A DNA stretch of 64,000 bases from Patescibacteria group bacterium (GTDB lineage Bacteria > Patescibacteriota > Patescibacteriia > S139-126 > S139-133): positions 91,610-155,609 of the forward strand of contig JBMYTV010000001.1 in the NCBI GenBank assembly GCA_049604715.1. Direction: 5' to 3'. The notes below the pieces were generated by a model. The model worked only from the letters and a program-made list of their open reading frames with translations, ran no database searches and was not told where the DNA came from. Of this stretch, positions 4,207-44,124 are shown in pieces (within the stretch, counting starts at the first letter, position 1; the number at the start of each line of letters is the position of its first letter). The position numbers were made by a program, and so were the translations under genes.

Positions 4207-4434
4207 ATGGCAGATAGAGTAGCAAAAGTAGAAATAGACAGAGAGCTTTGTATTGGTGTTGCATCATGTATTGCTATTGCGCCCGAGGCGTATGTACTTG
4301 ATGAAGAGAATATAGCCATTTTGACAAAAGAATGGCAACAATATGATGATGATGTACTTATACAATCCGCTGAAGTATGTCCAGTCAAAGCCATTTATCT
4401 TTATGATTCAGGTGGCGAACAGCTGTATCCATAG
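4207..4434 (+). CDS. small ferredoxin with three Cys ligands
   Basis: 75 aa. CIGVASC ... CP pattern typical of single-cluster ferredoxins, but the second Cys is replaced (Cys15, Cys21, Cys58 only). Starts 2 nt after the dehydrogenase stop. Confidence 0.65.
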   Translation: MADRVAKVEIDRELCIGVASCIAIAPEAYVLDEENIAILTKEWQQYDDDVLIQSAEVCPVKAIYLYDSGGEQLYP

Positions 4435-4516
4435 TAGTGATTTTATTTGCATAGATCCAAAAAGCAGTGTACGCTATTAGCACCACTGTTTTTTATAACC
4501 CTAATCAAAACATCGA

Positions 4517-4867
4517 TTGGAGTGGATAATGCAGAAGAAAATCCTAAGAGAGTTACCACAAGGGACTAAGGTAAGGGGACGTAATGGCCGAGTCGGATCA
4601 TATAGTAACGTTGTTCTTGTTGATCATGACTTCCATGTCCCTTATAGCGCTGCTCAAGAATTCAGAACTGTAGAAAAGTTCTTCGCAGCCCACATTAAAC
4701 CGCGCTTTAAGGGGCGCAAACGTGTACGAAAAAAGGATTTGCCGTATGGTACGTGGCACATCATGCAAAAAAAAGATAACACATCTACCACCTTTGTTAT
4801 TACGGTTTCTGTGCTTGATTATGAAAAAGGCTTTTCTGTCTTTTCGGTGACAATATCTGAAGCGTAA
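4517..4867 (+). CDS. hypothetical protein
   Basis: 116-aa ORF in an otherwise empty gap. No family recognised. Start could be the second Met (MQKK). Confidence 0.4.
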   Translation: MEWIMQKKILRELPQGTKVRGRNGRVGSYSNVVLVDHDFHVPYSAAQEFRTVEKFFAAHIKPRFKGRKRVRKKDLPYGTWHIMQKKDNTSTTFVITVSVLDYEKGFSVFSVTISEA

Positions 4868-4916
4868 TATAAAAAGCTATCCAAAATGGATAGCTTCATT
4901 TTTTGACGAAAGTTGG

Positions 4917-6551
4917 TTAGTCTACTTCTTCTTTTTTGTCTCGGACAAAAGATGTGATCTCTTCAAATGATGACACAATAAACTTATATGGTGCCTCAAT
5001 CACATAATCAAGGAAGAAGATGAAAAAGTTGATGCGTCGTGAGTTAAGTGAGATAAAGCGACCAGCTCTGATAATTGGTAGTGTAAACAAGTCAAAGATA
5101 AAGGTGAAAATGTTCTCTCTTTTACCAAGAACATTGAGTTCACGGGCACCAAGCCTCAAGCGAATACCAAAGAATGAAATCAATGTTAGGAATAAGATAA
5201 ATAGGAGACTAGAGACAATACTGAAGTTAAGACTTCGTAGTAGGTAGATGATTAGGCCAAATGTAATCAAGTAAATGATCAAATAAAATACATTGATAAA
5301 TATCCAACTGGCTGATCCAAACTGCGATGATTTGCGGAATTTTGCAACAATGGGCTTCATCTCTTCTCCATATACTAACTTTTTCACACCTTCCAAGATT
5401 TTCTTGGTATTTTTTTCTTTTGGAACACGTGTTGTTAATATTATAAGTGCCATCAAAAATGGAGGGAATAAGACATTGATCAAGACAGAGGGGTAGTGTA
5501 TTTCCTGTAGAATAAACATGTCATACGGTACTTCAACAGCTACCGCAACAATAACTTTAGTAAGGAAAATGTAAATCACAGATCTTATAGCGCCGCGGCG
5601 AAGTTTTTTGCGGGCGTTACCGTACCGTTTGTTTGCAGCCTTTTTTATCTCGTCTTCAAGTTGATTTGTGTAGCTAAGCGTGCGTTTCAGATGATCTCTA
5701 TTCTCTGCAAAGAGATCATTTAGGATCAAAAAGTAAACAGACAAGTTGTGTAGTCGTTTTTGTAGTATTTCACCAAGGGGGTGCTTGATCTGATGACTAA
5801 TAGCATGAACGAGCTTTGGGAAGTTGTCAGCAACTTTCATGATCACATCAGTCTGCGTGCCATCCCAGTTAGGGAAATAGAATTTGAACAAATAATATCG
5901 GAGTAGTGTTTCGTCTGATTTAATAATGTTTCTGTGAATAGCAATATAAATCTGGATATTTCGTTCCTTGTCGGTCGCAGGGAAGTTTCGGATATCTATC
6001 CTGGGTTTAACTATTCTGTAGAGTGTTTCAACTAGCGCGTCTTCACGAATAGGGGGTATGATTGATTCTTCAATTTCAGCTGCCATGATCTCCCAGATGA
6101 ACTGGTGGTACTCTTTAAGTTCATTACGTTTGTAGCGCATTCCGAGCTGGTCATAAAGCGTGATGTACTTATTGATAATGTTGGCTACGTCTTTGGCTTT
6201 GTCTTCAGGAATAGCATCATTTGGGAGGTATTGAGCGCGGATAAGTTCATGTAAAAGTGTTTCAGCAATGATCCCTGGATCTTTTCTGTTCATGCTCACT
6301 ACGCGCTTTGATATACGCTCAATAGCACTGCGTCTGAGAAGGTGGTCGTCTTTGTAATCAACGCTGTAGCGTAGCTTTTCATACAAGAGCGCCATTTTGC
6401 TTGTTATATAATTGAGCTTTATTTTGGGTTCTTTGTCTTTGTATAGCTCAATACCAAAAGGACCCTCATACACTTGTGCGAGGTTCTGGATGTCACTGTC
6501 TATGTCTTGTGTGCGGGATGGTTGACTCTGTGAAACTGCTTGCAGCGGCAT
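4917..6551 (-). CDS. hypothetical protein: large soluble N-terminal region with polytopic membrane C-terminal region
   Basis: 544 aa. About 330 aa of charged alpha-helical-looking sequence, then about 5 hydrophobic segments in the last 200 aa. No confident family assignment. Confidence 0.6.
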   Translation of the reverse strand: MPLQAVSQSQPSRTQDIDSDIQNLAQVYEGPFGIELYKDKEPKIKLNYITSKMALLYEKLRYSVDYKDDHLLRRSAIERISKRVVSMNRKDPGIIAETLLHELIRAQYLPNDAIPEDKAKDVANIINKYITLYDQLGMRYKRNELKEYHQFIWEIMAAEIEESIIPPIREDALVETLYRIVKPRIDIRNFPATDKERNIQIYIAIHRNIIKSDETLLRYYLFKFYFPNWDGTQTDVIMKVADNFPKLVHAISHQIKHPLGEILQKRLHNLSVYFLILNDLFAENRDHLKRTLSYTNQLEDEIKKAANKRYGNARKKLRRGAIRSVIYIFLTKVIVAVAVEVPYDMFILQEIHYPSVLINVLFPPFLMALIILTTRVPKEKNTKKILEGVKKLVYGEEMKPIVAKFRKSSQFGSASWIFINVFYLIIYLITFGLIIYLLRSLNFSIVSSLLFILFLTLISFFGIRLRLGARELNVLGKRENIFTFIFDLFTLPIIRAGRFISLNSRRINFFIFFLDYVIEAPYKFIVSSFEEITSFVRDKKEEVD

Positions 6552-18988: not shown

Positions 18989-19753
18989 GTGCTTATGCAA
19001 TTGTTAGAAATTCCGTTTGATAATTCAGTTCTGCGAGCTCTCCATAGTCCTGCTGAAAGTGACTCAGCGGTTATTTTTATACATGGCTTAGAAGGTTCAA
19101 CTGTTTATACAAAGTTTCGGAGACTAGAAAGACAACTCCGGTCCCATATACATGTTGTTAGATTTGATTGCATTGGTCAGGGTATGAGTGACGGGGAGTT
19201 TGAACATTTTACCATCAAGTCTGGAGTTGATCAGATCTCTGCAATTATTGAACATATGAAATTTAAGTATGGGATTACTAAGTTCAGTTTTGCAGCACAT
19301 AGCCTTGGCGGTGTTATGGCAGTAGAGTACATGCATCTGTATGAACATATACAAAAGGCACTGCTTATTTCTCCAGCGCTTAACCAGCGAGGGTTGCTGC
19401 GATATTTGTTTGCAAAGCGATTGCACCCAAATAAGCATATTGAGTGGAATAATTACCAAGAGTTTGCGCCAGAAAAGTTATTTTTACTTGCTACAAATAG
19501 AAAAGTGCCGGTTAGCTTTGGTTTTTTGGATAAGAAATTTTTTAAGGAGAATAGAAACATTGATTATAACAAGCGAGCGATTGCCTTTAGGGATAAGTTG
19601 TTTCTTGTTCATGGCACTCATGATGATACGGTTCCTATTCAGAGCAACAGCATAAAGCCGAATATAATTGTGTCTGATGGTGACCATCACTTAGAGCGTC
19701 CAAAGATGATTCGTCAGTGGCTAAAACAGGGAGTGAAGTTTCTGTTGGGTTAG
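18989..19753 (+). CDS. alpha/beta-fold hydrolase
   Basis: Nucleophile elbow AHSLGG. HG oxyanion motif FIHGLEG. C-terminal His. Confidence 0.7.
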   Translation: MLMQLLEIPFDNSVLRALHSPAESDSAVIFIHGLEGSTVYTKFRRLERQLRSHIHVVRFDCIGQGMSDGEFEHFTIKSGVDQISAIIEHMKFKYGITKFSFAAHSLGGVMAVEYMHLYEHIQKALLISPALNQRGLLRYLFAKRLHPNKHIEWNNYQEFAPEKLFLLATNRKVPVSFGFLDKKFFKENRNIDYNKRAIAFRDKLFLVHGTHDDTVPIQSNSIKPNIIVSDGDHHLERPKMIRQWLKQGVKFLLG

Positions 19754-19754
19754 G

Positions 19755-20153
19755 TTATATAGAAGCGAGAACAGGCGCAATGTTTGGTGCGCAGTTATCA
19801 GGTAAGTTATGTATAGGAATCCAGTCCCAGTCATCGATATCATCGCCAGGATTAATGTCGCCAATACGCTTAGCTAAAAAGTGTATGAGAATAACATACT
19901 CATCTTTATGATTTGGCCGCGGTGTTATGAGCGGCTTTAGCGGTTTGATAATTTTTATATCAATACTCATCTCTTCTCGAACTTTACGTTTGGCTGTTTC
20001 CTCAAGGGCTGTATTCCAGTCATCAAATTTAAAGTTTTCAAGCTGACCACCAGGGAACTTCCACATTTTTTTGTCGCCATGTTGAACGAGTAATACTTTG
20101 TCATCTTCTATAATAATCGGACCTGAAGCTATAATAATTTGTTTTGCCATCAA
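19755..20153 (-). CDS. NUDIX hydrolase
   Basis: Nudix box GGQLE-x7-ALEETAKRKVREEMSI. 132 aa. Confidence 0.8.
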   Translation of the reverse strand: MMAKQIIIASGPIIIEDDKVLLVQHGDKKMWKFPGGQLENFKFDDWNTALEETAKRKVREEMSIDIKIIKPLKPLITPRPNHKDEYVILIHFLAKRIGDINPGDDIDDWDWIPIHNLPDNCAPNIAPVLASI

Positions 20154-20199
20154 TTTATTTTAATACTCTAAACTTAATATATCGAATATTTGGAGGATA

Positions 20200-21834
20200 T
20201 TATAGGTCTTTTGTCATATACGTTCCTTCAAGTTCGTAGCCAAGGCGGTCTTTATAGTATTGACGCACTCCAATTCCTGAGATAACAGCCATTTTTGTAA
20301 GGCCGTGCTTTTTAGCAATGTCTTCAGCATGCCTCATGAGCTTACTACCAAGTCCTTTGTGTTGGACTCGTTTGTTTTCCTTGTCATCATGTCTAACAAC
20401 CTGTCCGTATACATGTAGTTCGCGAGTTAGTGCAGCACCTTCTAGTTCTGGAAATAGAACTTTTGTTTTTGGATCATTGAGTCTTACGCGAACAAATCCA
20501 TAGAGTATAGTACGGTCAGTATTTTCATATGATACAAAAAATTCTTTTCCTCCGGCGGCCTCAAATTCGTCAATATAAAGTTGAATATCATTGTGTGTTT
20601 CGATTTTGCGTGCTTCGCGACAACGAATACAATGACAGCGCATGCCGCGTTTTTTCATTTCTTTTTCAAGCATTTCTCTTAAATTGGTGATTTTGTTACC
20701 AGCTTGTATGCTTGTTTCTGGGAAGTCGCGGATAACTCGGTTAATGCGACAGTAGTAGGGAACTATTTGCTTGAGATCGATAAGTAGCTCAAATAGTTTG
20801 TCATGACCATACGGTTTATACACACCACTTTTCCACCAGTGGTAGAGTGGTGCAAATTTGTTAACAATTGTTGGATATATTTTTACTTGGTCTGGCTTAA
20901 ATCCAGGATCATCAAAAATTCGGTGTAGTGTATCATGGTCAATCTCTGGAGTTGCGCCAGGGAGATTTTGCATAATGTGATGGTCTATCTTAAAACCGTT
21001 TTGGCGAAGTAGCGATGTTGCTCGGATTGAGTCCTCAACAGTATGTCCTCGTTCTATTTTTTCTAAAATTGCATCATCAAGAACTTGAATACCAAGTTGT
21101 ACGCGTGTACATCCAAGTTTACGTAGGTGACGAATCTCGTTTTCGTCAACCCAGTCGGGCCTGGTTTCAAGAGTAATGCCAATTATTCGGTAATGCGCAG
21201 TCTCGTTAATTTTTTGTGCTTGTTGGAGTGTATATGAGCGAACTTTTTTGGGGATAGGTTTTTTTTCAAGTTTGAATTTAAAATAATTTGCTCCTTCAAA
21301 ACAACGCTTGATGAACCACTCACGGTAGTCCCTTGGATAGGCTGACCAGGTTCCACCAAGTACAAGAAGTTCAATTTTATCAGGCTCATGACCATTTATA
21401 TAAAGCGCGCGAAGACGGTTGTATACTTGCATGAAAGGATCAAACTTGTTGGCTTTGGCCCGCATTGCGCCAGGTTCATTGGAAAGGTAGCTTTTCGGCA
21501 TACCAGGTTCAAGTGGGCAGTAAATACATTTACCAGGACAGGCAAATGGTTTGGTGAGAACAGTTACTGGAGTTACACCAGAAAGCGTTCTAATGGGTCT
21601 AATTTTCAAGAATTTGTTTAGATGAACACTTGGGCTAATCTCTCCATTTTTGAGCATGGTTTGATATACTGTACGTAGATCATTTTTAGGCTGAGGGGGT
21701 AGATTATGTTTGGCAGCTATAGTACGATTTAAGCGCATAAACGCATCGTCATCTTGCGGTTTTGATGCGATTGTTTCTGATAATATTAAATGTAATACTT
21801 TTTCACGTTCCATATGTTGAAGCGAGTACAGCAA
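20200..21834 (-). CDS. elp3: Elp3-like tRNA uridine(34) modification enzyme (radical SAM plus GNAT acetyltransferase domains)
   Basis: N-terminal region aligns with eukaryotic/archaeal Elp3 (IRPIRTLSGVTPVTVLTKPFACPGKCIYCP radical-SAM Cys cluster). Central TIM-barrel region. C-terminal GNAT with acetyl-CoA motif QHKGLGSKLM. 544 aa (537 if the second Met is the start). Confidence 0.85.
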   Translation of the reverse strand: MLYSLQHMEREKVLHLILSETIASKPQDDDAFMRLNRTIAAKHNLPPQPKNDLRTVYQTMLKNGEISPSVHLNKFLKIRPIRTLSGVTPVTVLTKPFACPGKCIYCPLEPGMPKSYLSNEPGAMRAKANKFDPFMQVYNRLRALYINGHEPDKIELLVLGGTWSAYPRDYREWFIKRCFEGANYFKFKLEKKPIPKKVRSYTLQQAQKINETAHYRIIGITLETRPDWVDENEIRHLRKLGCTRVQLGIQVLDDAILEKIERGHTVEDSIRATSLLRQNGFKIDHHIMQNLPGATPEIDHDTLHRIFDDPGFKPDQVKIYPTIVNKFAPLYHWWKSGVYKPYGHDKLFELLIDLKQIVPYYCRINRVIRDFPETSIQAGNKITNLREMLEKEMKKRGMRCHCIRCREARKIETHNDIQLYIDEFEAAGGKEFFVSYENTDRTILYGFVRVRLNDPKTKVLFPELEGAALTRELHVYGQVVRHDDKENKRVQHKGLGSKLMRHAEDIAKKHGLTKMAVISGIGVRQYYKDRLGYELEGTYMTKDL

Positions 21835-22563
21835 AAGATTTTGAGAAAAACTAAAGAAAATTATGATATTGTAGCTGCTGATTATGCAGGTACACGCGAT
21901 CGTTCCTGGCCATCAGGGAAAAGCATTTTACCTGAATTGAAAGAAAAGCTGAAGGCTCAGGATAATATTTTAGACCTGGGTGCTGGAAGTGGCATTTTAG
22001 TTCAAGAATTGGCAGAATTTGGGATGCCACTTAACTATACAGGATATGATGTTTCAGAAAAGCTTGTAGCTATAGCTAAAAATAAATTTGGATCTAAGTA
22101 TAGCCAAATACAGTGCACGTGGCAAGTCGGAAGTGCACTCAAATTACCATTTGCAGACAACACATTTGATCACTGCGCTGCAGTGGCTGTTTTGCATCAT
22201 ATTCCTTCAGTAACTTTGCGGCGCGAGGTATTGAGGGAGATTTACCGTGTGTGTAAGCCAGGAGCGTTTGTGTATATAACAAACTGGTACTTGTGGACTT
22301 CTGTAGCGTTTAAAAAATACAATTTGTATAGACAACTACTGAGAATATTTGAAGGTTATGACATAGGTGATTTTTATATCCCATGGCGTGATAACAAAGG
22401 CAAAATAAAGGCGCGTCGTTATGTGCACTCATTTTGGTCATTTGAGGTAGATTTGTTATGTAGAACTACAGGGTTTTCAGTGCTCACACCCACTCATTTA
22501 GAGAAGGCGCCAGGACAAACCCTGGCTCAACGGATTGTGACAATTGCACAAAAACCAAATTGA
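21814..22563 (+). CDS. Trm9/ALKBH8-type tRNA methyltransferase (class I SAM-MTase)
   Basis: N-terminal AADYAGTRDRSWP resembles the Trm9 HFSxTRYKPWP block. Motif I LDLGAGSG. C-terminal RRYVHSFWSFEV resembles RYYHVF(R)EGE of Trm9/ALKBH8. Start may be the in-frame TTG at 21844. Confidence 0.65.
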   Translation: MLKRVQQKILRKTKENYDIVAADYAGTRDRSWPSGKSILPELKEKLKAQDNILDLGAGSGILVQELAEFGMPLNYTGYDVSEKLVAIAKNKFGSKYSQIQCTWQVGSALKLPFADNTFDHCAAVAVLHHIPSVTLRREVLREIYRVCKPGAFVYITNWYLWTSVAFKKYNLYRQLLRIFEGYDIGDFYIPWRDNKGKIKARRYVHSFWSFEVDLLCRTTGFSVLTPTHLEKAPGQTLAQRIVTIAQKPN

Positions 22564-22608
22564 AAATCTACATGATTAGTGGTAGATTGAGTATACTATT
22601 TTGTACAT

Positions 22609-23115
22609 ATGGGCTTTGATATTACTCCTCCGAAAAAAAGACGACCAGTAAAGCAGCCGCAGGCAAAACCTGCGTCTCGTCCTGCTGCGCCAAAGGCTAC
22701 CACACCACCAAAATCAAATACTCCAAAGAGACAAGCGCCAAAGCAAACAAAGCCTAAGCGCAAAAAGAAGGTTTTTGGAAAAGTTATATCTATGTTGATC
22801 ATTTTAGCCTTGGTCGCAGGAGTTGTGTATGCGTTTAGGGAAGGGTATATTGTGTTACCTGAAACAGCTGACAATACTATTACGGATACAGTAGATGACA
22901 ATACGATCGTAGCGACGTTTGGAGATGAGCCAGCAGAAGATGATTTGGAAGAGGAGGAGACAGAGGATGAGGGTGTGGATGTTATAAATGATCCACTCAT
23001 GAGTGCACACCTTGATTTTGTACAAATGGTTGAGTCTTTGCCAGAGGAGCCGCAGCTGGCTGGTTATGATTTACGTGAGGTTCAATTGTTAAATACATAT
23101 GTTAATGACTTTTAG
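22609..23115 (+). CDS. hypothetical membrane-anchored protein (Pro/Lys-rich N-terminus, one TM, acidic C-terminal region)
   Basis: 168 aa. PPKKRRPVKQPQAKPASRPAAPK...TM...EDDLEEEETEDEG. Confidence 0.5.
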   Translation: MGFDITPPKKRRPVKQPQAKPASRPAAPKATTPPKSNTPKRQAPKQTKPKRKKKVFGKVISMLIILALVAGVVYAFREGYIVLPETADNTITDTVDDNTIVATFGDEPAEDDLEEEETEDEGVDVINDPLMSAHLDFVQMVESLPEEPQLAGYDLREVQLLNTYVNDF

Positions 23116-23920
23116 ATCAGTTACAACTTTTTTTGTGTTACTCACTATGGTGTTTTCCATAGGGTATGTTGCAGTGGCACAAGAATTGGATAGTGATCCT
23201 GGTGATCTGCGAGAAGTATTTTTGGATGCTCGTGATACTTTTTTTGAAAGTCAGACCACTGCTAATCAGGAGATTTATATAGAACAAGCTCGTCAGTATG
23301 CGCTGGCAATAACTGAAGCTCAAGAAACATTTATCATAGCTACTGAGAAATCAATGTATGATAGTCTTCGTATTAAGGATACTGTTCCACAAAATTGGCT
23401 TGAACAGGAGAAAGTTGACATTGATACATTTCGAGTGAGCCTAGATGATGCAACCAACTATGCACGGATACAAGCGATTATGCGTGATAATGCCGAGTAT
23501 TGGCAAAGAGTACAAAACAAGATTCAGGAAATGCGAGCATGGTATGCGTTTGATCAATATGCAGTACTATTAACTAACTCGCGCCTTATCCGCGACGCGT
23601 TATTGTCAGCACAAATAGATGTTGAGCAGCAGCTACAGGTTACGGGAGTTGCTGATGTTGACTTTGATTCTTGGCGCAGTGTGTTTGATGCTTACTCTGA
23701 GAAGTTGGTTGTTCTTGAGGATGAACTAGATCAACAGCGCGGTGTATTTTCTGAAACCGACTATACCACACTTGATGAAGAGGATGCTGAATGGCAGAAG
23801 GACCTTGAATACCTAAGAACACTAAAAGTAGAGATGTTGGCACTTAGTCAATTACAAGAAGCTTCTATCAACCAATTTCTAGCAACAGTATCAGCTTATG
23901 TCGTTCCAGTAACAGAATAG
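23099..23920 (+). CDS. hypothetical secreted protein
   Basis: Signal peptide MLMTFRSVTTFFVLLTMVFSIGYVAVAQ. Helical/coiled-coil-like remainder. Overlaps the previous gene by 17 nt. Confidence 0.5.
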   Translation: MLMTFRSVTTFFVLLTMVFSIGYVAVAQELDSDPGDLREVFLDARDTFFESQTTANQEIYIEQARQYALAITEAQETFIIATEKSMYDSLRIKDTVPQNWLEQEKVDIDTFRVSLDDATNYARIQAIMRDNAEYWQRVQNKIQEMRAWYAFDQYAVLLTNSRLIRDALLSAQIDVEQQLQVTGVADVDFDSWRSVFDAYSEKLVVLEDELDQQRGVFSETDYTTLDEEDAEWQKDLEYLRTLKVEMLALSQLQEASINQFLATVSAYVVPVTE

Positions 23921-23921
23921 T

Positions 23922-25361
23922 ATGACCAAAGACAAGACAATTGTTGAATCATTTTCAGGGGTAAGAGGGGTTTTTGGTGAAGGAATTACAACTGAACTTG
24001 CACGCGCGTATGCGCGTGCTTTTGTTGATATTTTACTTGAGCGTAATGATTCAGTTATATTCGTTGTTGCATCTGATACAAGAGACTCATCAAAAGAACT
24101 GCGTAGTATATGGGTTGAAGAAGCGCAGAAAGCTGGCGCCCTAGTATATGATATAGGTGCTACTACTACACCGGTTGCATTTCACTATGTACGAGAAGTC
24201 AAAGCGCATGGCGGTGTGATGATAACTGCATCACATAACCCACCAGAGTATAATGGCTGGAAGTGCATTAGCGCTTTGGGTACTATGCTTGAGCCAGATG
24301 ATATGGATGAGTTGATTGATAAAGCGCACAGTAATAGCAACCCTAAAGGAAGTGGTAAGGGAGAAGTAAAAGAACATAAAGCAGTGGCTGTTGATGCGTA
24401 TATACAGTATCTGAAGTCGCACTTCTCTGAGCAAGAAGTTGAGATGATTAAATCTTTTTCAGGTAATGTTGTTCTAGATCCAAACGGAAGTGCTGTCTGG
24501 AGTGTTTTGCAAAAGGTGTGTGATAACTTTGGTATTGCACATCATGGTATAAGAACAAGAGAAGGTATATTTGAGAGGCTTATTGAGCCAAACAATGAAT
24601 CACTCCAAGACGTAGCTGAGATTGTATCGGAGCAAGGTGCTTTATTTGGCTGCGGGTTTGATTGTGATGCAGATCGGGTTGAGTTAGTGTTGCCTCACGA
24701 TTGTGAGCGAGCAAAAAGTTATGGCCCAGTTGTATCTGGACAGTACGTGCTAGCCCTTGGGGTTGATGCAGTATTATCATCAGCACAGGGTAAGGTGCCA
24801 AAGTCTCCACCAGTTGTAGTGAACTATGCAACATCTTCTTTGGTTCGTGATATCGCCAAGAAATATAAAACAGAAACAATTGAAGTGGATGTAGGTGAGA
24901 TTGTAGTCATTATGGCTATGCGTAAATATGGGTCACTTGTCGGAGGGGAAGGTAGTAGCAGTGGTATGATTGCAAAAGATGGGGTTTGTAGAGATGGTGT
25001 TTTAGTTTTTTTACTTACCATTTTGCTGTTATCCAGTAGAGGCAAGACTTTAGTTGAGCAACTAGATTCATATCCCCAGTACTATGATTTACGAAGCAAG
25101 GAGACTGTTGATCCAGATAAGATGTTGGCTATTCGAGAGGGTCTTTTGAGTTACTACGGTAAATTGGGGTATACTATTGTTACTAATGAAGATGATCCTA
25201 GCTCAGGGATAAAGATAAATATTGATAATCAGGCTTGGGTTTTTTATAGGGCTTCAAGAACTGAACCTGGTCAATATAGAATTATTGTAAATGGACCTGA
25301 TAAACAGCAGCTTGATATACTACTTGCTCAGGCTCAAGAGTTATTTAAATCATTAACGTAA
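23922..25361 (+). CDS. phosphoglucomutase/phosphomannomutase family protein (paralog 1)
   Basis: Active-site serine loop TASHNPPEYNGWK. Metal-binding GFDCDADR. 479 aa. Confidence 0.85.
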   Translation: MTKDKTIVESFSGVRGVFGEGITTELARAYARAFVDILLERNDSVIFVVASDTRDSSKELRSIWVEEAQKAGALVYDIGATTTPVAFHYVREVKAHGGVMITASHNPPEYNGWKCISALGTMLEPDDMDELIDKAHSNSNPKGSGKGEVKEHKAVAVDAYIQYLKSHFSEQEVEMIKSFSGNVVLDPNGSAVWSVLQKVCDNFGIAHHGIRTREGIFERLIEPNNESLQDVAEIVSEQGALFGCGFDCDADRVELVLPHDCERAKSYGPVVSGQYVLALGVDAVLSSAQGKVPKSPPVVVNYATSSLVRDIAKKYKTETIEVDVGEIVVIMAMRKYGSLVGGEGSSSGMIAKDGVCRDGVLVFLLTILLLSSRGKTLVEQLDSYPQYYDLRSKETVDPDKMLAIREGLLSYYGKLGYTIVTNEDDPSSGIKINIDNQAWVFYRASRTEPGQYRIIVNGPDKQQLDILLAQAQELFKSLT

Positions 25362-25368
25362 AGAATAT

Positions 25369-26805
25369 ATGCAGATTAATCCACTTGTGTATCGCGGATA
25401 TGACATCCGTGGCGTGGCAGGAGAAGATTTTACTCCAGAAAAAGTTGAGGCACTTGGCCGTGGTTTTGGTACTATGCTTCGCAAAAGAAAGATTCGTCAA
25501 ATGGTTTTGGGGTATGATGCTCGTTTAACAGGGCCCGAATACTCAGAAGCTTTTGCAAAAGGTGTTATATCAACAGGTGTTGATGTAATTGATATCGGCA
25601 TGGTCATGATTCAGACTATTTATTTTGCTCAGTATTATTTTCAAGTAAATGGAGCTGTGATGATTACTGCATCTCATAATCCAGCAAGTGATAACGGGTT
25701 CAAAATGGGCATGCGTTTTTCACAGACGATTGTAGAGGAGATTCAAGAGCTCAAAGATATTGTGGCAAGCGACGCTTACTGGGATAAGGACGACTTAGTC
25801 GGTACAATTAGAAAGGATGATGTAAATGAAGCTTACTACCAAGACATCATTAAGCGGAGTAACATTACCAAGAAGTTTAAGGTGGTTGTTGATACAGGTC
25901 ACGGAGTTGCGGGAAAATTCATACCTGAGCTTCTTGAGAAAGTAGGTTGTGAGGTTGTTGGGCAGATGCTTGAGCCAGATGGCTCATTCCCAGCAGGTAC
26001 ACCTGACCCAACTGATAATGAAATGATTAAACGTGTTCAAGAGCGTGTCAAAAAAGAAAACGCTGATCTTGGTTTTGCATTTGATGGTGACGGCGACAGA
26101 ATTGGTATAGTTGATGATCAGGGTGAGGTCATTTGGAATGATGAGTTGTTGGCTATTTTTGCGCGAGAAATTCTTACACGTTTTCCAGGAGCAAAGATCA
26201 TTTATAACACTCTTTGTTCACAAGCAGTAAAGAAAGTTATTGAACAGTACAAAGGAGAGCCAATTATGTGGCGGGTAGGGCACTCATACTTAAAGGAGAA
26301 ATTAGTTGCAGAAAAAGCCTTTTTCGCTGGTGAGCTTTCAGGGCACATGTTCTTTGCAGATAACTTTTATGGTCATGATGATGGTAGTTTTGTTGCATGT
26401 CGGTTACTCGACTTTTTGAGTGAAGTAGATAAGCCCCTGAGCGAGGTTAGAAAAGAGATGCCGCAGTATATCTCTTCACCTCAAATTAAGATTGGTTGTG
26501 ATGATAAAAAGAAGATAGAAGTAATAAAAAGATTAGCTCAAGAGTTTCGTGATGACTTCAAAGGCGCTGAAATTACTGACGATACAGTAATTCCAGGAGA
26601 TGACGGGGTAAGAGCTGACTTTGATGATGGTATGATAGTGCTTCGATATAGTCAAAATGGTCCTTATGTTACATTCAAATTTGAAGCTAGCAACGAAGAT
26701 GTATATGAAGAACGTCGTTTGTATTTAAAAGAAAAGCTACAGGCTGTAGAAGAGCTCGAGTGGGAGAGTAATCACAGTACAAATGCAGATTTTATTTTAA
26801 AATAA
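25369..26805 (+). CDS. phosphomannomutase/phosphoglucomutase (paralog 2)
   Basis: YDIRGVAGEDFT N-terminus. TASHNPASDNGFK. GFAFDGDGDR. 478 aa. Confidence 0.85.
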   Translation: MQINPLVYRGYDIRGVAGEDFTPEKVEALGRGFGTMLRKRKIRQMVLGYDARLTGPEYSEAFAKGVISTGVDVIDIGMVMIQTIYFAQYYFQVNGAVMITASHNPASDNGFKMGMRFSQTIVEEIQELKDIVASDAYWDKDDLVGTIRKDDVNEAYYQDIIKRSNITKKFKVVVDTGHGVAGKFIPELLEKVGCEVVGQMLEPDGSFPAGTPDPTDNEMIKRVQERVKKENADLGFAFDGDGDRIGIVDDQGEVIWNDELLAIFAREILTRFPGAKIIYNTLCSQAVKKVIEQYKGEPIMWRVGHSYLKEKLVAEKAFFAGELSGHMFFADNFYGHDDGSFVACRLLDFLSEVDKPLSEVRKEMPQYISSPQIKIGCDDKKKIEVIKRLAQEFRDDFKGAEITDDTVIPGDDGVRADFDDGMIVLRYSQNGPYVTFKFEASNEDVYEERRLYLKEKLQAVEELEWESNHSTNADFILK

Positions 26806-42822: not shown

Positions 42823-44124
42823 ATGGGTAGAAAAACACCTCCACAGTTTCCACTTACCATTGAGCATATAGTATTTGGAGGGGAAGGAATGGGGTATTTT
42901 GAAAATAGGCCCGTTTTTGTTTATGGAGTTTTTCCAGGAGAAGAGGTAGTGGTTGCTCCTATTAAAGTTAATAGCAGGTTTGTGAAGGCACGGCTTGTGT
43001 CAGTTACCAAGTCTTCACCAAAACGTATACCAGCACTCGAGGAGCATCATTTAACCTGTAGTCCATGGCAAACTATTTCATATGATGAGCAGGTGGTGTA
43101 TAAGACAAGCATGGTGAAATCTATGTGGGAACATATGACTAAAGACGTGAGCAAAGAGACGCTCACCATTTTGCCTAGTGATGAGCAGTGGAATTATCGT
43201 AATAAGCTAGAGTTTTCAGTTATAGAGGGTGATGGAGGTGGTATGCAGTTAGCATTTCATAAACGTTACCGTCACAGTCAGTATTATGGTCTAGATAAGT
43301 GTGTACTTGGTATGCCGCAGATGAATACAGCAGCAACAGCTTTGCTCGGTCAGCTACAAGATTTGGGAGTAACTGCAGATATGATAAAGAACATTTTAGT
43401 ACGAGGTACAAATACAGGAGATGTAGTTGCTGTGGTATACGCAATGACAAAAAAGTTTCCAGATGTAGATTTTTCAAAATTATCAATACAAGGAGGTGCG
43501 GTCGTTTACTCTGATCCAAAATCGCCAGTCGCAAAAACAGATGAAGTTCTTCTGAGTTTTGGGATTCTTGATCTTACAGAAAGTGTAAATGAAAAAAAGT
43601 TAACTTACGGGTATGAAAGTTTTTTCCAAGTACATACACCGATGTTTACAAAGCTTATACAAGAACTGAAGAAGCACTTGCCCAAGTCTATTCCAAGATT
43701 GCTAGACTTATACTCAGGTGTTGGAACTATTGGGATTGCTCTCTCAGATATTGTAGGTCATATTACTGCAATAGAGAATCATAGTAAGTCTAAGTACTAT
43801 GCAGAGATTAATTTCTCACAAAATGGTATTAACAATTTTGATTTTATGCAGATTGAGGTAGAGAAAAGTGAAATGCATGATTTGTTTACATCACATGATG
43901 TGATATGCGTTGATCCTCCTAGAGCTGGCTTACATCCGAAGGTATCTGAGATGTTGAGTGAAAGTGGTTCAGATATTATTGTATACGTATCATGTAACCC
44001 AGCAACACAGGCAAGAGATTGGAACATTTTGAAGAAAAATTATATCATAAAGACATGGTATCTTGTGGATATGTATCCGCAAACACCACATGTAGAAAGT
44101 GTACTAGTTTTAAAACGTACGTAA
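42823..44124 (+). CDS. RNA (uracil-C5)-methyltransferase, TrmA/RlmD family with TRAM domain
   Basis: N-terminal TRAM-like beta barrel. Motif I DLYSGVGTIG. Motif IV DPPRAG. C-terminal catalytic Cys region VSCNP. 433 aa. Confidence 0.85.
   Translation: MGRKTPPQFPLTIEHIVFGGEGMGYFENRPVFVYGVFPGEEVVVAPIKVNSRFVKARLVSVTKSSPKRIPALEEHHLTCSPWQTISYDEQVVYKTSMVKSMWEHMTKDVSKETLTILPSDEQWNYRNKLEFSVIEGDGGGMQLAFHKRYRHSQYYGLDKCVLGMPQMNTAATALLGQLQDLGVTADMIKNILVRGTNTGDVVAVVYAMTKKFPDVDFSKLSIQGGAVVYSDPKSPVAKTDEVLLSFGILDLTESVNEKKLTYGYESFFQVHTPMFTKLIQELKKHLPKSIPRLLDLYSGVGTIGIALSDIVGHITAIENHSKSKYYAEINFSQNGINNFDFMQIEVEKSEMHDLFTSHDVICVDPPRAGLHPKVSEMLSESGSDIIVYVSCNPATQARDWNILKKNYIIKTWYLVDMYPQTPHVESVLVLKRT

Follow-up and report, generated by a model that had tools for sequence, protein, structure and literature searches.

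Whether a bacterium can modify the wobble uridine (U34) of its tRNAs by an Elongator-type pathway made up of only two proteins is the question raised by a pair of adjacent genes from a metagenome-assembled genome (MAG) of the Patescibacteria, also referred to as the candidate phyla radiation (CPR). The genes are located within a 64-kb stretch of DNA, which as a whole will be called the window and to which all statements on the gene neighborhood and on genes absent from this host are limited. One of them, on the minus strand, encodes a stand-alone Elp3, which combines a radical S-adenosylmethionine (SAM) domain with a GNAT domain, and the other, on the plus strand, a Trm9-like class I SAM-dependent methyltransferase. 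In the literature, the route leading from Elp3 to Trm9 and to 5-methoxycarbonylmethyluridine (mcm5U) is regarded as a pathway of eukaryotes and, to some degree, of archaea. A preliminary description of this DNA had proposed that the pair represents such a wobble-uridine pathway, and this proposal is supported by the family profile of the methyltransferase, by its active-site residues and by the pairing of the two genes in 29 of 29 informative loci. We estimate the probability that the pair is a two-gene module of this kind, in which 5-carboxymethyluridine (cm5U) would be converted into mcm5U, at about two-thirds.

Both reading frames were found, intact and divergently oriented, at the positions given in that description. 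The Elp3 gene (20200..21813, minus strand), as predicted by the gene caller and by NCBI, starts from an ATG at 21813 and encodes a protein of 537 amino acids (aa), whereas the length of 544 aa reported at first is that of the longest open reading frame (ORF), which starts from a TTG and would end at 21834. The ATG start is in keeping with the TIGR01211 alignment, in which profile position 3 is matched by residue 18 in the numbering of the 544-aa form. Judged by its sequence, the protein is unambiguously a member of the Elp3 family. TIGR01211 matched it over profile positions 3–522 of 522 with 548.4 bits (1.5e-164; cutoff 350), and the top match in a phmmer search against the PDB was Elp3 of Methanocaldococcus infernus (MinElp3; 6iaz, 2.9e-114), with that of Dehalococcoides mccartyi (DmcElp3; 5l7j, 3e-113, 382 bits) and a eukaryotic Elp3 (8avg_C, 4.5e-96) among the other matches. 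These results, together with its NCBI name ("elongator complex protein 3", MGB0756943.1), identify it as a long-form, stand-alone radical-SAM/GNAT protein and a predicted tRNA U34 cm5U synthase. The complete Elp3 architecture that had been noted, with a radical-SAM cluster and a C-terminal GNAT domain, was confirmed by the full-length TIGR01211 match, by PF04055 (Radical_SAM, 57.7 bits) and PF16199 (Radical_SAM_C, 66.3 bits), and by alignment of the motifs; the GNAT domain is present, PF00583 scoring 28.2 bits against a cutoff of 20.7.

The motifs of this protein align with those of the structurally characterized enzymes. The cysteine motif of the radical-SAM [4Fe-4S] cluster, CPGKCIYC (aa 92–99 in the 537-aa numbering; 21517..21540, minus strand), is aligned with the corresponding motif in MinElp3, and in its extended form, CPGKCIYCP, it is identical in DmcElp3. 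The linker cysteine triad CHCIRC (aa 393–398; 20620..20637, minus strand) corresponds to CRCIRC of both MinElp3 and DmcElp3, a Zn-binding motif described for bacterial and archaeal Elp3 (PMC6367351), and the acetyl-CoA-binding motif of the GNAT/KAT domain, QHKGLGSKLM (aa 484–493; 20335..20364, minus strand), is of the form Q/RxxGxG/A and is aligned to QHMGYGRMLM in MinElp3 and QHRGLGRKLL in DmcElp3. An N-terminal extension of about 73–75 aa, a region that has been implicated in tRNA binding (PMC6367351), is shared with the archaeal and eukaryotic proteins but is absent from DmcElp3. It may be mentioned that the product name attached to NCBIfam TIGR01211, and carried over from it into bacterial genome annotations, refers to a "5-carboxymethylaminomethyl modification", which is the product of MnmEG, whereas the chemistry of Elp3 leads to 5-carboxymethyl (cm5U).

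Evidence that the two genes belong together comes from their distribution. When loci were searched from both genes, Elp3 and the Trm9-like methyltransferase were found paired in all 29 informative loci, of which 24 are of the Patescibacteria type (one binned as Anaerolineaceae) and five are from Chloroflexota. Besides the window itself (1/1), the methyltransferase used as a query recovered the pair in 3/3 database homologs and in 15/15 species-representative genomes with a full-length relative, the latter comprising Saccharibacteria, Portnoybacteria, Paceibacterota, Parcubacteria and one Anaerolineaceae MAG. With Elp3 as the query, the pair was present in 5/5 metagenome loci and 5/5 D. mccartyi-type loci of the Chloroflexota. 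A 16th species locus located at a contig end, one incomplete metagenome locus (of six) and one incomplete Chloroflexota locus were not counted. In the control set of 64 loci carrying methyltransferases with only the generic core, an Elp3 was not found within 6 kb in any instance (0/64). The co-occurrence expected in related genomes held in all of the informative loci. Furthermore, when all ORFs from 23 non-redundant loci were clustered, Elp3 and the methyltransferase were the only conserved genes; no third universal gene, be it Trm112, a thiolation enzyme or a NUDIX hydrolase, was detected at these loci.

The pair is also present in a bacterium with a characterized Elp3. In D. mccartyi (locus L097, CP019867.1), a methyltransferase of 224 aa (4283–4957, minus strand) and Elp3 (5001–6380, plus strand) are divergently transcribed with a gap of 43 bp between them, and the Elp3 at this locus is the crystallized DmcElp3. 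The same pair occurs in four further Chloroflexota loci (L098, L100, L101, and L102). The methyltransferases in these loci are shorter (213–224 aa) and form a more divergent branch, which has kept the motif set FR, HH, VW, VPW, RYY, and RN. They score 41–53 bits with Trm9 of Yarrowia lipolytica (YlTrm9) and 104–132 bits with the hidden Markov model (HMM) of the CPR family, the value for the D. mccartyi partner being 126.

The methyltransferase gene of the window (21814..22563, plus strand) encodes a protein of 249 aa, its first base directly following the Elp3 start at 21813, and the family HMM, the comparison of the family profile with the PDB and its adjacency to Elp3 mark it as a predicted cm5U34 to mcm5U34 carboxyl methyltransferase. 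It belongs to a large family; an exhaustive profile search with a limit of E ≤ 1e-30 recovered no fewer than 2,023 clusters at 50% identity, and most of the 150 top hits are full-length proteins of ~235 aa. In their source databases these proteins are labeled "class I SAM-dependent methyltransferase", "UbiE" or "hypothetical", and one member is named TRM9 (JGI). Because the protein from the window scored 198 bits with a family HMM that was built without it, as compared to 110 bits for the best decoy, it can be placed within this family. When a family profile based upon seven sequences was compared with the PDB, Trm9 (5cm2_Z) was the top match with 84.5 bits, only 0.6 bits ahead of 3sm3 (83.9 bits), an uncharacterized archaeal methyltransferase (PDB). 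With a profile based upon 91 sequences the lead increased to 12 bits (105.8 bits, 1.7e-29, for Trm9 and 93.9 bits for 3sm3), and the alignment with Trm9 spans almost the whole chain. In the reciprocal test, the median score of YlTrm9 was 50.7 bits across 195 family proteins, as compared to 6.7 bits (maximum 33.4) across 70 generic methyltransferases, which were recovered by the same genome scan using a 4-sequence alignment as the query.

The relationship of this family to Trm9 is further supported by the conservation of catalytically important residues. The active-site residues of Trm9 have been defined by mutation (PMC4678810), and seven of the nine that are experimentally required are kept in the methyltransferase family. 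The window protein has the equivalents of R29, D72, H116, W145, and R241 of Saccharomyces cerevisiae Trm9 (ScTrm9), whose mutation, like that of W168, abolishes the activity of Trm9, and also that of H115; all six are either invariant or at least 90% conserved among 91 family members. The N-terminal Trm9-type block YDIVAADYAGTR (aa 17–28; 21862..21897, plus strand) contains R28, which is equivalent to ScTrm9 R29, whose role has been described (PMC4678810), and Y17 at the position of ScTrm9 Y18; R28, aligned by HMMER to YlTrm9 R40, is present in 91/91 members and Y17 in 86/91. It is followed by the SAM-binding motif I, LDLGAGSG (aa 53–60; 21970..21993, plus strand), and by D79 (22048–22050, plus strand), the equivalent of ScTrm9 D72, which is aligned with YlTrm9 D83 and found in all family members (91/91). 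The segment AVLHHIPS (aa 125–132; 22186..22209, plus strand), aligned to AVIHHFST of YlTrm9, carries H128 and H129, the counterparts of ScTrm9 H115 and the essential H116 (YlTrm9 H126/H127); these histidines are found in 83 and 87 of the 91 proteins, respectively, and the motif is absent from the decoy methyltransferases. W158, within ITNWY (aa 155–159; 22276..22290, plus strand; YVW in YlTrm9), is present in 91/91 and corresponds to ScTrm9 W145, an essential residue that is proposed to stack on U34.

The C-terminal Trm9-type module, DFYIPWRD...RRYVHSF (aa 186–207; 22369..22434, plus strand), which aligns to DVMVPW...RYRYYHLY of YlTrm9, is missing from all of the decoys. Within this module W191 corresponds to W168 of ScTrm9, R202 to R241, Y203 to Y242, and V204 lies at the position of Y243. 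The W191 position is occupied by W in 69 and by F in 19 of the 91 family members, and R202, a residue of a C-terminal beta-strand that aligns to YlTrm9 R192, is present in 82/91. The blocks AADYAGTRDRSWP and RRYVHSFWSFEV, to which attention had been drawn earlier as resembling Trm9, were indeed found to align to the blocks that hold the catalytic R29 and R241. As for N271, which has been proposed to recognize the uracil ring (PMC4678810), the HMMER alignment ends one residue short of the corresponding YlTrm9 N222, and its likely equivalent, identified by position only, is a column containing Asn in 84/91 proteins, seven residues before a C-terminal Lys. Neither the N-terminal Arg block nor the HH motif is found in the generic methyltransferases, and the C-terminal PW/RY.H module is missing from them in its entirety. 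Four high-scoring decoys that were considered as Elp3-less family members, viz. L053 (Intestinibacter), L027 and L028 (cyanobacterial MAGs), and L035 (Halococcus), were rejected, since neither the N-terminal Arg block nor any of the C-terminal module is present in them.

The methyltransferase had initially been described as of the Trm9/ALKBH8 type. The Trm9 part of this assignment is upheld by the family profile and the conserved residues, but not the ALKBH8 part: the 249-aa protein consists of a single domain with Pfam matches to methyltransferases only, and because AlkB and RRM domains are absent from it, it is of the Trm9 type rather than the ALKBH8 type. One family cluster (P0155, 547 aa; members P0169–P0175) contains an inserted domain, labeled by JGI as a very-short-patch-repair endonuclease, which divides the methyltransferase into two matched stretches and may represent a mobile endonuclease insertion.

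Based upon these results, a two-step pathway can be proposed. In the first step, the stand-alone Elp3 would bind tRNA, SAM would be cleaved at the [4Fe-4S] cluster to generate a 5'-deoxyadenosyl radical, and an acetyl unit from acetyl-CoA, bound by the GNAT domain, would be placed on C5 of U34 to yield cm5U34. We infer this step from the strong homology of the protein to enzymes with demonstrated chemistry, as formation of cm5U has been shown for archaeal Elp3 and tRNA-triggered hydrolysis of acetyl-CoA for bacterial Elp3 (PMC6367351, PMC13315578). In the second step, which we infer from residue conservation and the strict linkage of the genes, the Trm9-like methyltransferase would use SAM to methyl-esterify the carboxyl group of cm5U34, giving mcm5U34; Arg28 and His128/His129 would position the carboxylate and Trp158 and Trp191 would hold the base. 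Thiolation at position 2, leading to mcm5s2U, may follow.

A number of observations weigh against this pathway. Trm9 from eukaryotes and archaea requires Trm112, and no Trm112-like ORF was found by a motif scan of the window and 26 loci. When the window methyltransferase alone was compared with the PDB by phmmer, it scored higher with 3sm3 (59.1 bits) than with Trm9 (5cm2_Z; 25.2 bits, 1e-4), although Trm9 gave the sole near-full-length alignment, and fold searches do not single out Trm9. Its score with YlTrm9 is 23.7 bits, compared to 55–60 bits for its sister lineage. The methyltransferase shares just 34% identity with the partners (L091–L094) of Elp3s that are 66–68% identical to the Elp3 of the window, its motif I reads GAGSG where the family consensus is GCGNGR, and at near-invariant positions of the family it carries the substitutions C57A, N59S, R61I, and N240R. 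The Y243 position is not conserved, being V204 in the window protein and Y, F, V or L in 27, 15, 13 and 12, respectively, of the 91 family members; Y203 (Y242 in ScTrm9) and H205, which flank it, are conserved, and the alanine mutant of Trm9 Y243 retains about 10% activity (PMC4678810). Lastly, at the likely N271 column the window protein has Arg (Q239-R240), the only Arg among the 91 proteins, and its sister lineage likewise lacks Asn at this position. The 34% identity versus 66–68% for the Elp3s and the substitutions at near-invariant positions indicate unusually rapid evolution of one of the two partners, and the window protein is a drifted, divergent member of its family.

An alternative is that the methyltransferase acts after Elp3 on tRNA but that the product is something other than plain mcm5U, either because another atom or another cm5U derivative is methylated or because the copy in the window is weakened or altered. 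Changes at four near-invariant positions, a rate of evolution about twice that of Elp3 and the variability of the Y243 position across the family are all in keeping with this possibility. In Haloferax volcanii the cm5U intermediate is converted into other products when Trm9 is missing (PMC6144793), and this diversion shows that the U34 pathway is plastic. However, R28, H128/H129, R202 and both Trp residues are kept in the window copy, its ORF is intact, its AF2 model is confident (pLDDT 91.7) and its score with the family HMM is high; we consider a different product to be unlikely.

It is much less probable that the protein is an unrelated UbiE-like or other small-molecule class I methyltransferase, which lies next to Elp3 as a consequence of genome compaction. 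The names in the databases and the fold searches would agree with such an interpretation, as would the Pfam matches of the window protein, which are generic (Methyltransf_11/25; PF08241, 78.7 bits), and its NCBIfam matches, which are limited to sub-threshold hits of the UbiE/MenG type. However, all equivalog models scored far below their cutoffs (TIGR01934, 70 bits versus 158), the adjacency extends over all informative loci in two phyla with otherwise different neighbors and is not seen in the generic loci, and the N- and C-terminal modules and catalytic residues specific for Trm9 are present in the family but absent from generic methyltransferases. The clustering with small-molecule methyltransferases that would speak for this view was not seen, the top PDB match of the family profile being Trm9 and YlTrm9 separating the family from the generic proteins. 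The possibility that 3sm3 is the true closest relative was also rejected, as it does not separate the family from generic methyltransferases (40.7 versus 38.2 bits) and the TR, HH, and W motifs are absent from it. That the pair acts on a target other than tRNA U34, for example if the GNAT domain acetylates a protein, an activity formerly proposed for Elongator, and the methyltransferase modifies the same non-tRNA target, is suggested by PDB entries labeled "Histone acetyltransferase, ELP3 family" but merits hardly any credence, as hydrolysis of acetyl-CoA by bacterial, archaeal, and eukaryotic Elp3 is triggered by tRNA and not by histone or tubulin peptides (PMC6367351) and the closest relative of the methyltransferase partner is a tRNA methyltransferase.

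Returning to the proposed two-gene mcm5U module, the head-to-head architecture of the pair is strikingly invariant. The methyltransferase lies directly opposite Elp3, as had been reported, and their start codons abut as CAT/ATG with 0 bp between them (21811..21816). The genes thus form a divergent pair and not an operon, the term under which the module was introduced in the preliminary description. The starts either abut (CATATG; the window, L001, L016, and L091–L093) or overlap by 2 nucleotides (CATG; L009, L012–L014, L019, L021, L022, L025, and L095) in about 15 of the 23 CPR loci. As a consequence of this arrangement, the promoters and ribosome-binding sites must sit within the coding sequence of the partner gene, and the two transcripts would be antisense to one another at their 5' ends. 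Such a geometry would keep the genes together and they are probably co-regulated; if the module is self-contained, the conservation of abutting or overlapping starts would reflect obligatory co-expression.

The next gene downstream of Elp3, located 46 nucleotides away and on the same strand, encodes a NUDIX hydrolase (19755..20153, minus strand; PF00293, 1.6e-13) and is possibly co-transcribed with Elp3. Six of the 23 loci have a NUDIX gene in the vicinity of the pair, and in the window and L012 it lies immediately downstream of Elp3. It is not universal, and its proximity may reflect local synteny rather than function. In the Dehalococcoidia loci a zinc-ribbon protein of 72–75 aa with four Cys residues (CPxC...CWKC) is conserved near the pair (L097, 3423–3650; L098, 3387–3605; L100, 552–770; L101, 1967–2185; all minus strand). 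This protein was considered as a candidate Trm112 but was rejected, since it gave no PF03966 (Trm112p) signal and has no counterpart in the window or the CPR loci. Genes for QueH, an epoxyqueuosine reductase involved in wobble-base tRNA modification, and a small GNAT acetyltransferase are located 2–3 kb from the pair in Dehalococcoidia loci (L097, 2140–2688; L098, 1767–2327; L101, 484–1047). Two proteins recur downstream of the methyltransferase in 5–7 loci of the Saccharibacteria type, one of them small and Lys-rich (median 89 aa) and the other of 183 aa (L013, 8575–8964; L014, 6862–7131; also L016, L017, L019, L020, and L022).

The pair can be compared with several known systems. The pathway of eukaryotic Elongator together with Trm9-Trm112 or ALKBH8-TRMT112 likewise proceeds from a radical-SAM/GNAT Elp3 to a Trm9-type methyltransferase, so that both catalytic folds and their order are shared with the bacterial pair. 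The bacterial module differs from it in lacking the Elp1, 2, 4, 5, and 6 subunits, as expected for prokaryotes, in having no Trm112 detected nearby and no AlkB or RRM domains, in the lack of conservation of the Y243 equivalent and, for the window copy, of the N271 equivalent, and in the head-to-head linkage of genes that are unlinked in eukaryotes. Archaeal Elp3 is, like that of the window, a stand-alone long form with an N-terminal extension, and MinElp3 was its top PDB match. In archaea, clustering of the genes for Elp3 and Trm9 has been noted in Sulfolobus solfataricus (Grosjean et al. 2008, PMC2584109), and in H. volcanii, where these genes are HVO_2888 and HVO_1032, mcm5U was demonstrated in 2018 and depends upon both Trm9 and Trm112 (PMC6144793). 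Archaeal Trm9 has been reported solely in Sulfolobales and Halobacteriales and requires Trm112 (PMC5372719, PMC6144793); the host of the window is in contrast a bacterium, and the likeness to archaeal Trm9 is based upon its published description. DmcElp3 (PDB 5L7J, 5L7L), the characterized bacterial Elp3, is likewise a stand-alone protein encoded next to a divergent Trm9-like methyltransferase, although it is a short form (459 aa) without the N-terminal extension and its gene is separated from that of its partner by 43 bp instead of 0. Among other bacterial enzymes that decorate C5 of the wobble uridine, CmoM (mcmo5U34) also methyl-esterifies a side-chain carboxyl like Trm9, but its match to the family profile (8joz; 3e-10, 42.9 bits) covers only the Rossmann core and it does not have the Trm9-type modules. 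The MnmE-MnmG-MnmC route to xm5U34 acts on the same position, but the chemistry of MnmEG (folate, glycine, FAD) is unrelated to that of Elp3; no genes for MnmE, MnmG or MnmA are present within the 64-kb window.

Because mcm5U is known from H. volcanii (PMC6144793) and an Elp3-Trm9 gene cluster from Sulfolobus (PMC2584109), neither the chemistry nor the gene clustering is new, and the pair adds a bacterial member to a known pathway, predicted from sequence to carry out known chemistry, rather than a new type of system. The statement that Elp3 is rare in bacteria was only partly right, as the literature refers to its presence in "some bacterial clades" (PMC6367351) or in "numerous bacteria" (PMC13315578). 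A 2017 review states that methyltransferases of this kind are lacking in bacteria, and the papers on bacterial Elp3 do not mention a partner. In agreement with the earlier suggestion that the pairing had not been described in bacteria, no description of an Elp3-Trm9 pair in CPR, Patescibacteria or Dehalococcoides was found in the literature, although the clustering in Sulfolobus is known and the original paper on DmcElp3 (PMC5018218) might mention the neighboring gene. The recurrence of the pair in every related locus suggests that some bacteria use a route that has been documented only in eukaryotes and archaea. A broader proposal, to which we would give rather less than an even chance, is that at least two bacterial phyla, Patescibacteria and Chloroflexota including D. 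mccartyi, make mcm5(s2)U34 by means of a self-contained Elp3 and a Trm112-independent relative of Trm9, possibly as an Elp3-methyltransferase complex that could stand in for MnmE-MnmG.

If the predicted function is correct, thousands of genes that are presently annotated in generic terms gain a specific and testable role, and mcm5(s2)U34, a modification for which we found no bacterial report in the literature, should occur in bacteria. The family may also provide a Trm9 that is independent of Trm112 for mechanistic studies, and its distribution bears on whether the pathway was inherited by, or transferred between, archaea and ultra-small bacteria. As D. mccartyi, already a model organism for bacterial Elp3, carries the pair, a direct experiment is possible in this species.

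The remaining observations concern the window as a whole. It contains genes for EF-P, bS6, YchF, ParA/ParB, topoisomerase I, DprA, Mfd, RelA/SpoT, and UppS, and because a segment with such housekeeping genes is a normal part of a bacterial chromosome, the possibility that the contig is archaeal and was mis-binned was ruled out. Terminator-like hairpins are enriched at 19600–23200 (nine, versus 2.6 ± 1.5 expected from shuffles), the majority of them within coding sequence. An ORF of 544 aa at 4917–6551 (minus strand) gave no Pfam match whatever. A TrmA/RlmD-type RNA uracil-5 methyltransferase is encoded at 42823–44124, and tandem phosphoglucomutase/phosphomannomutase paralogs are present at 23922–25361 and 25369–26805.

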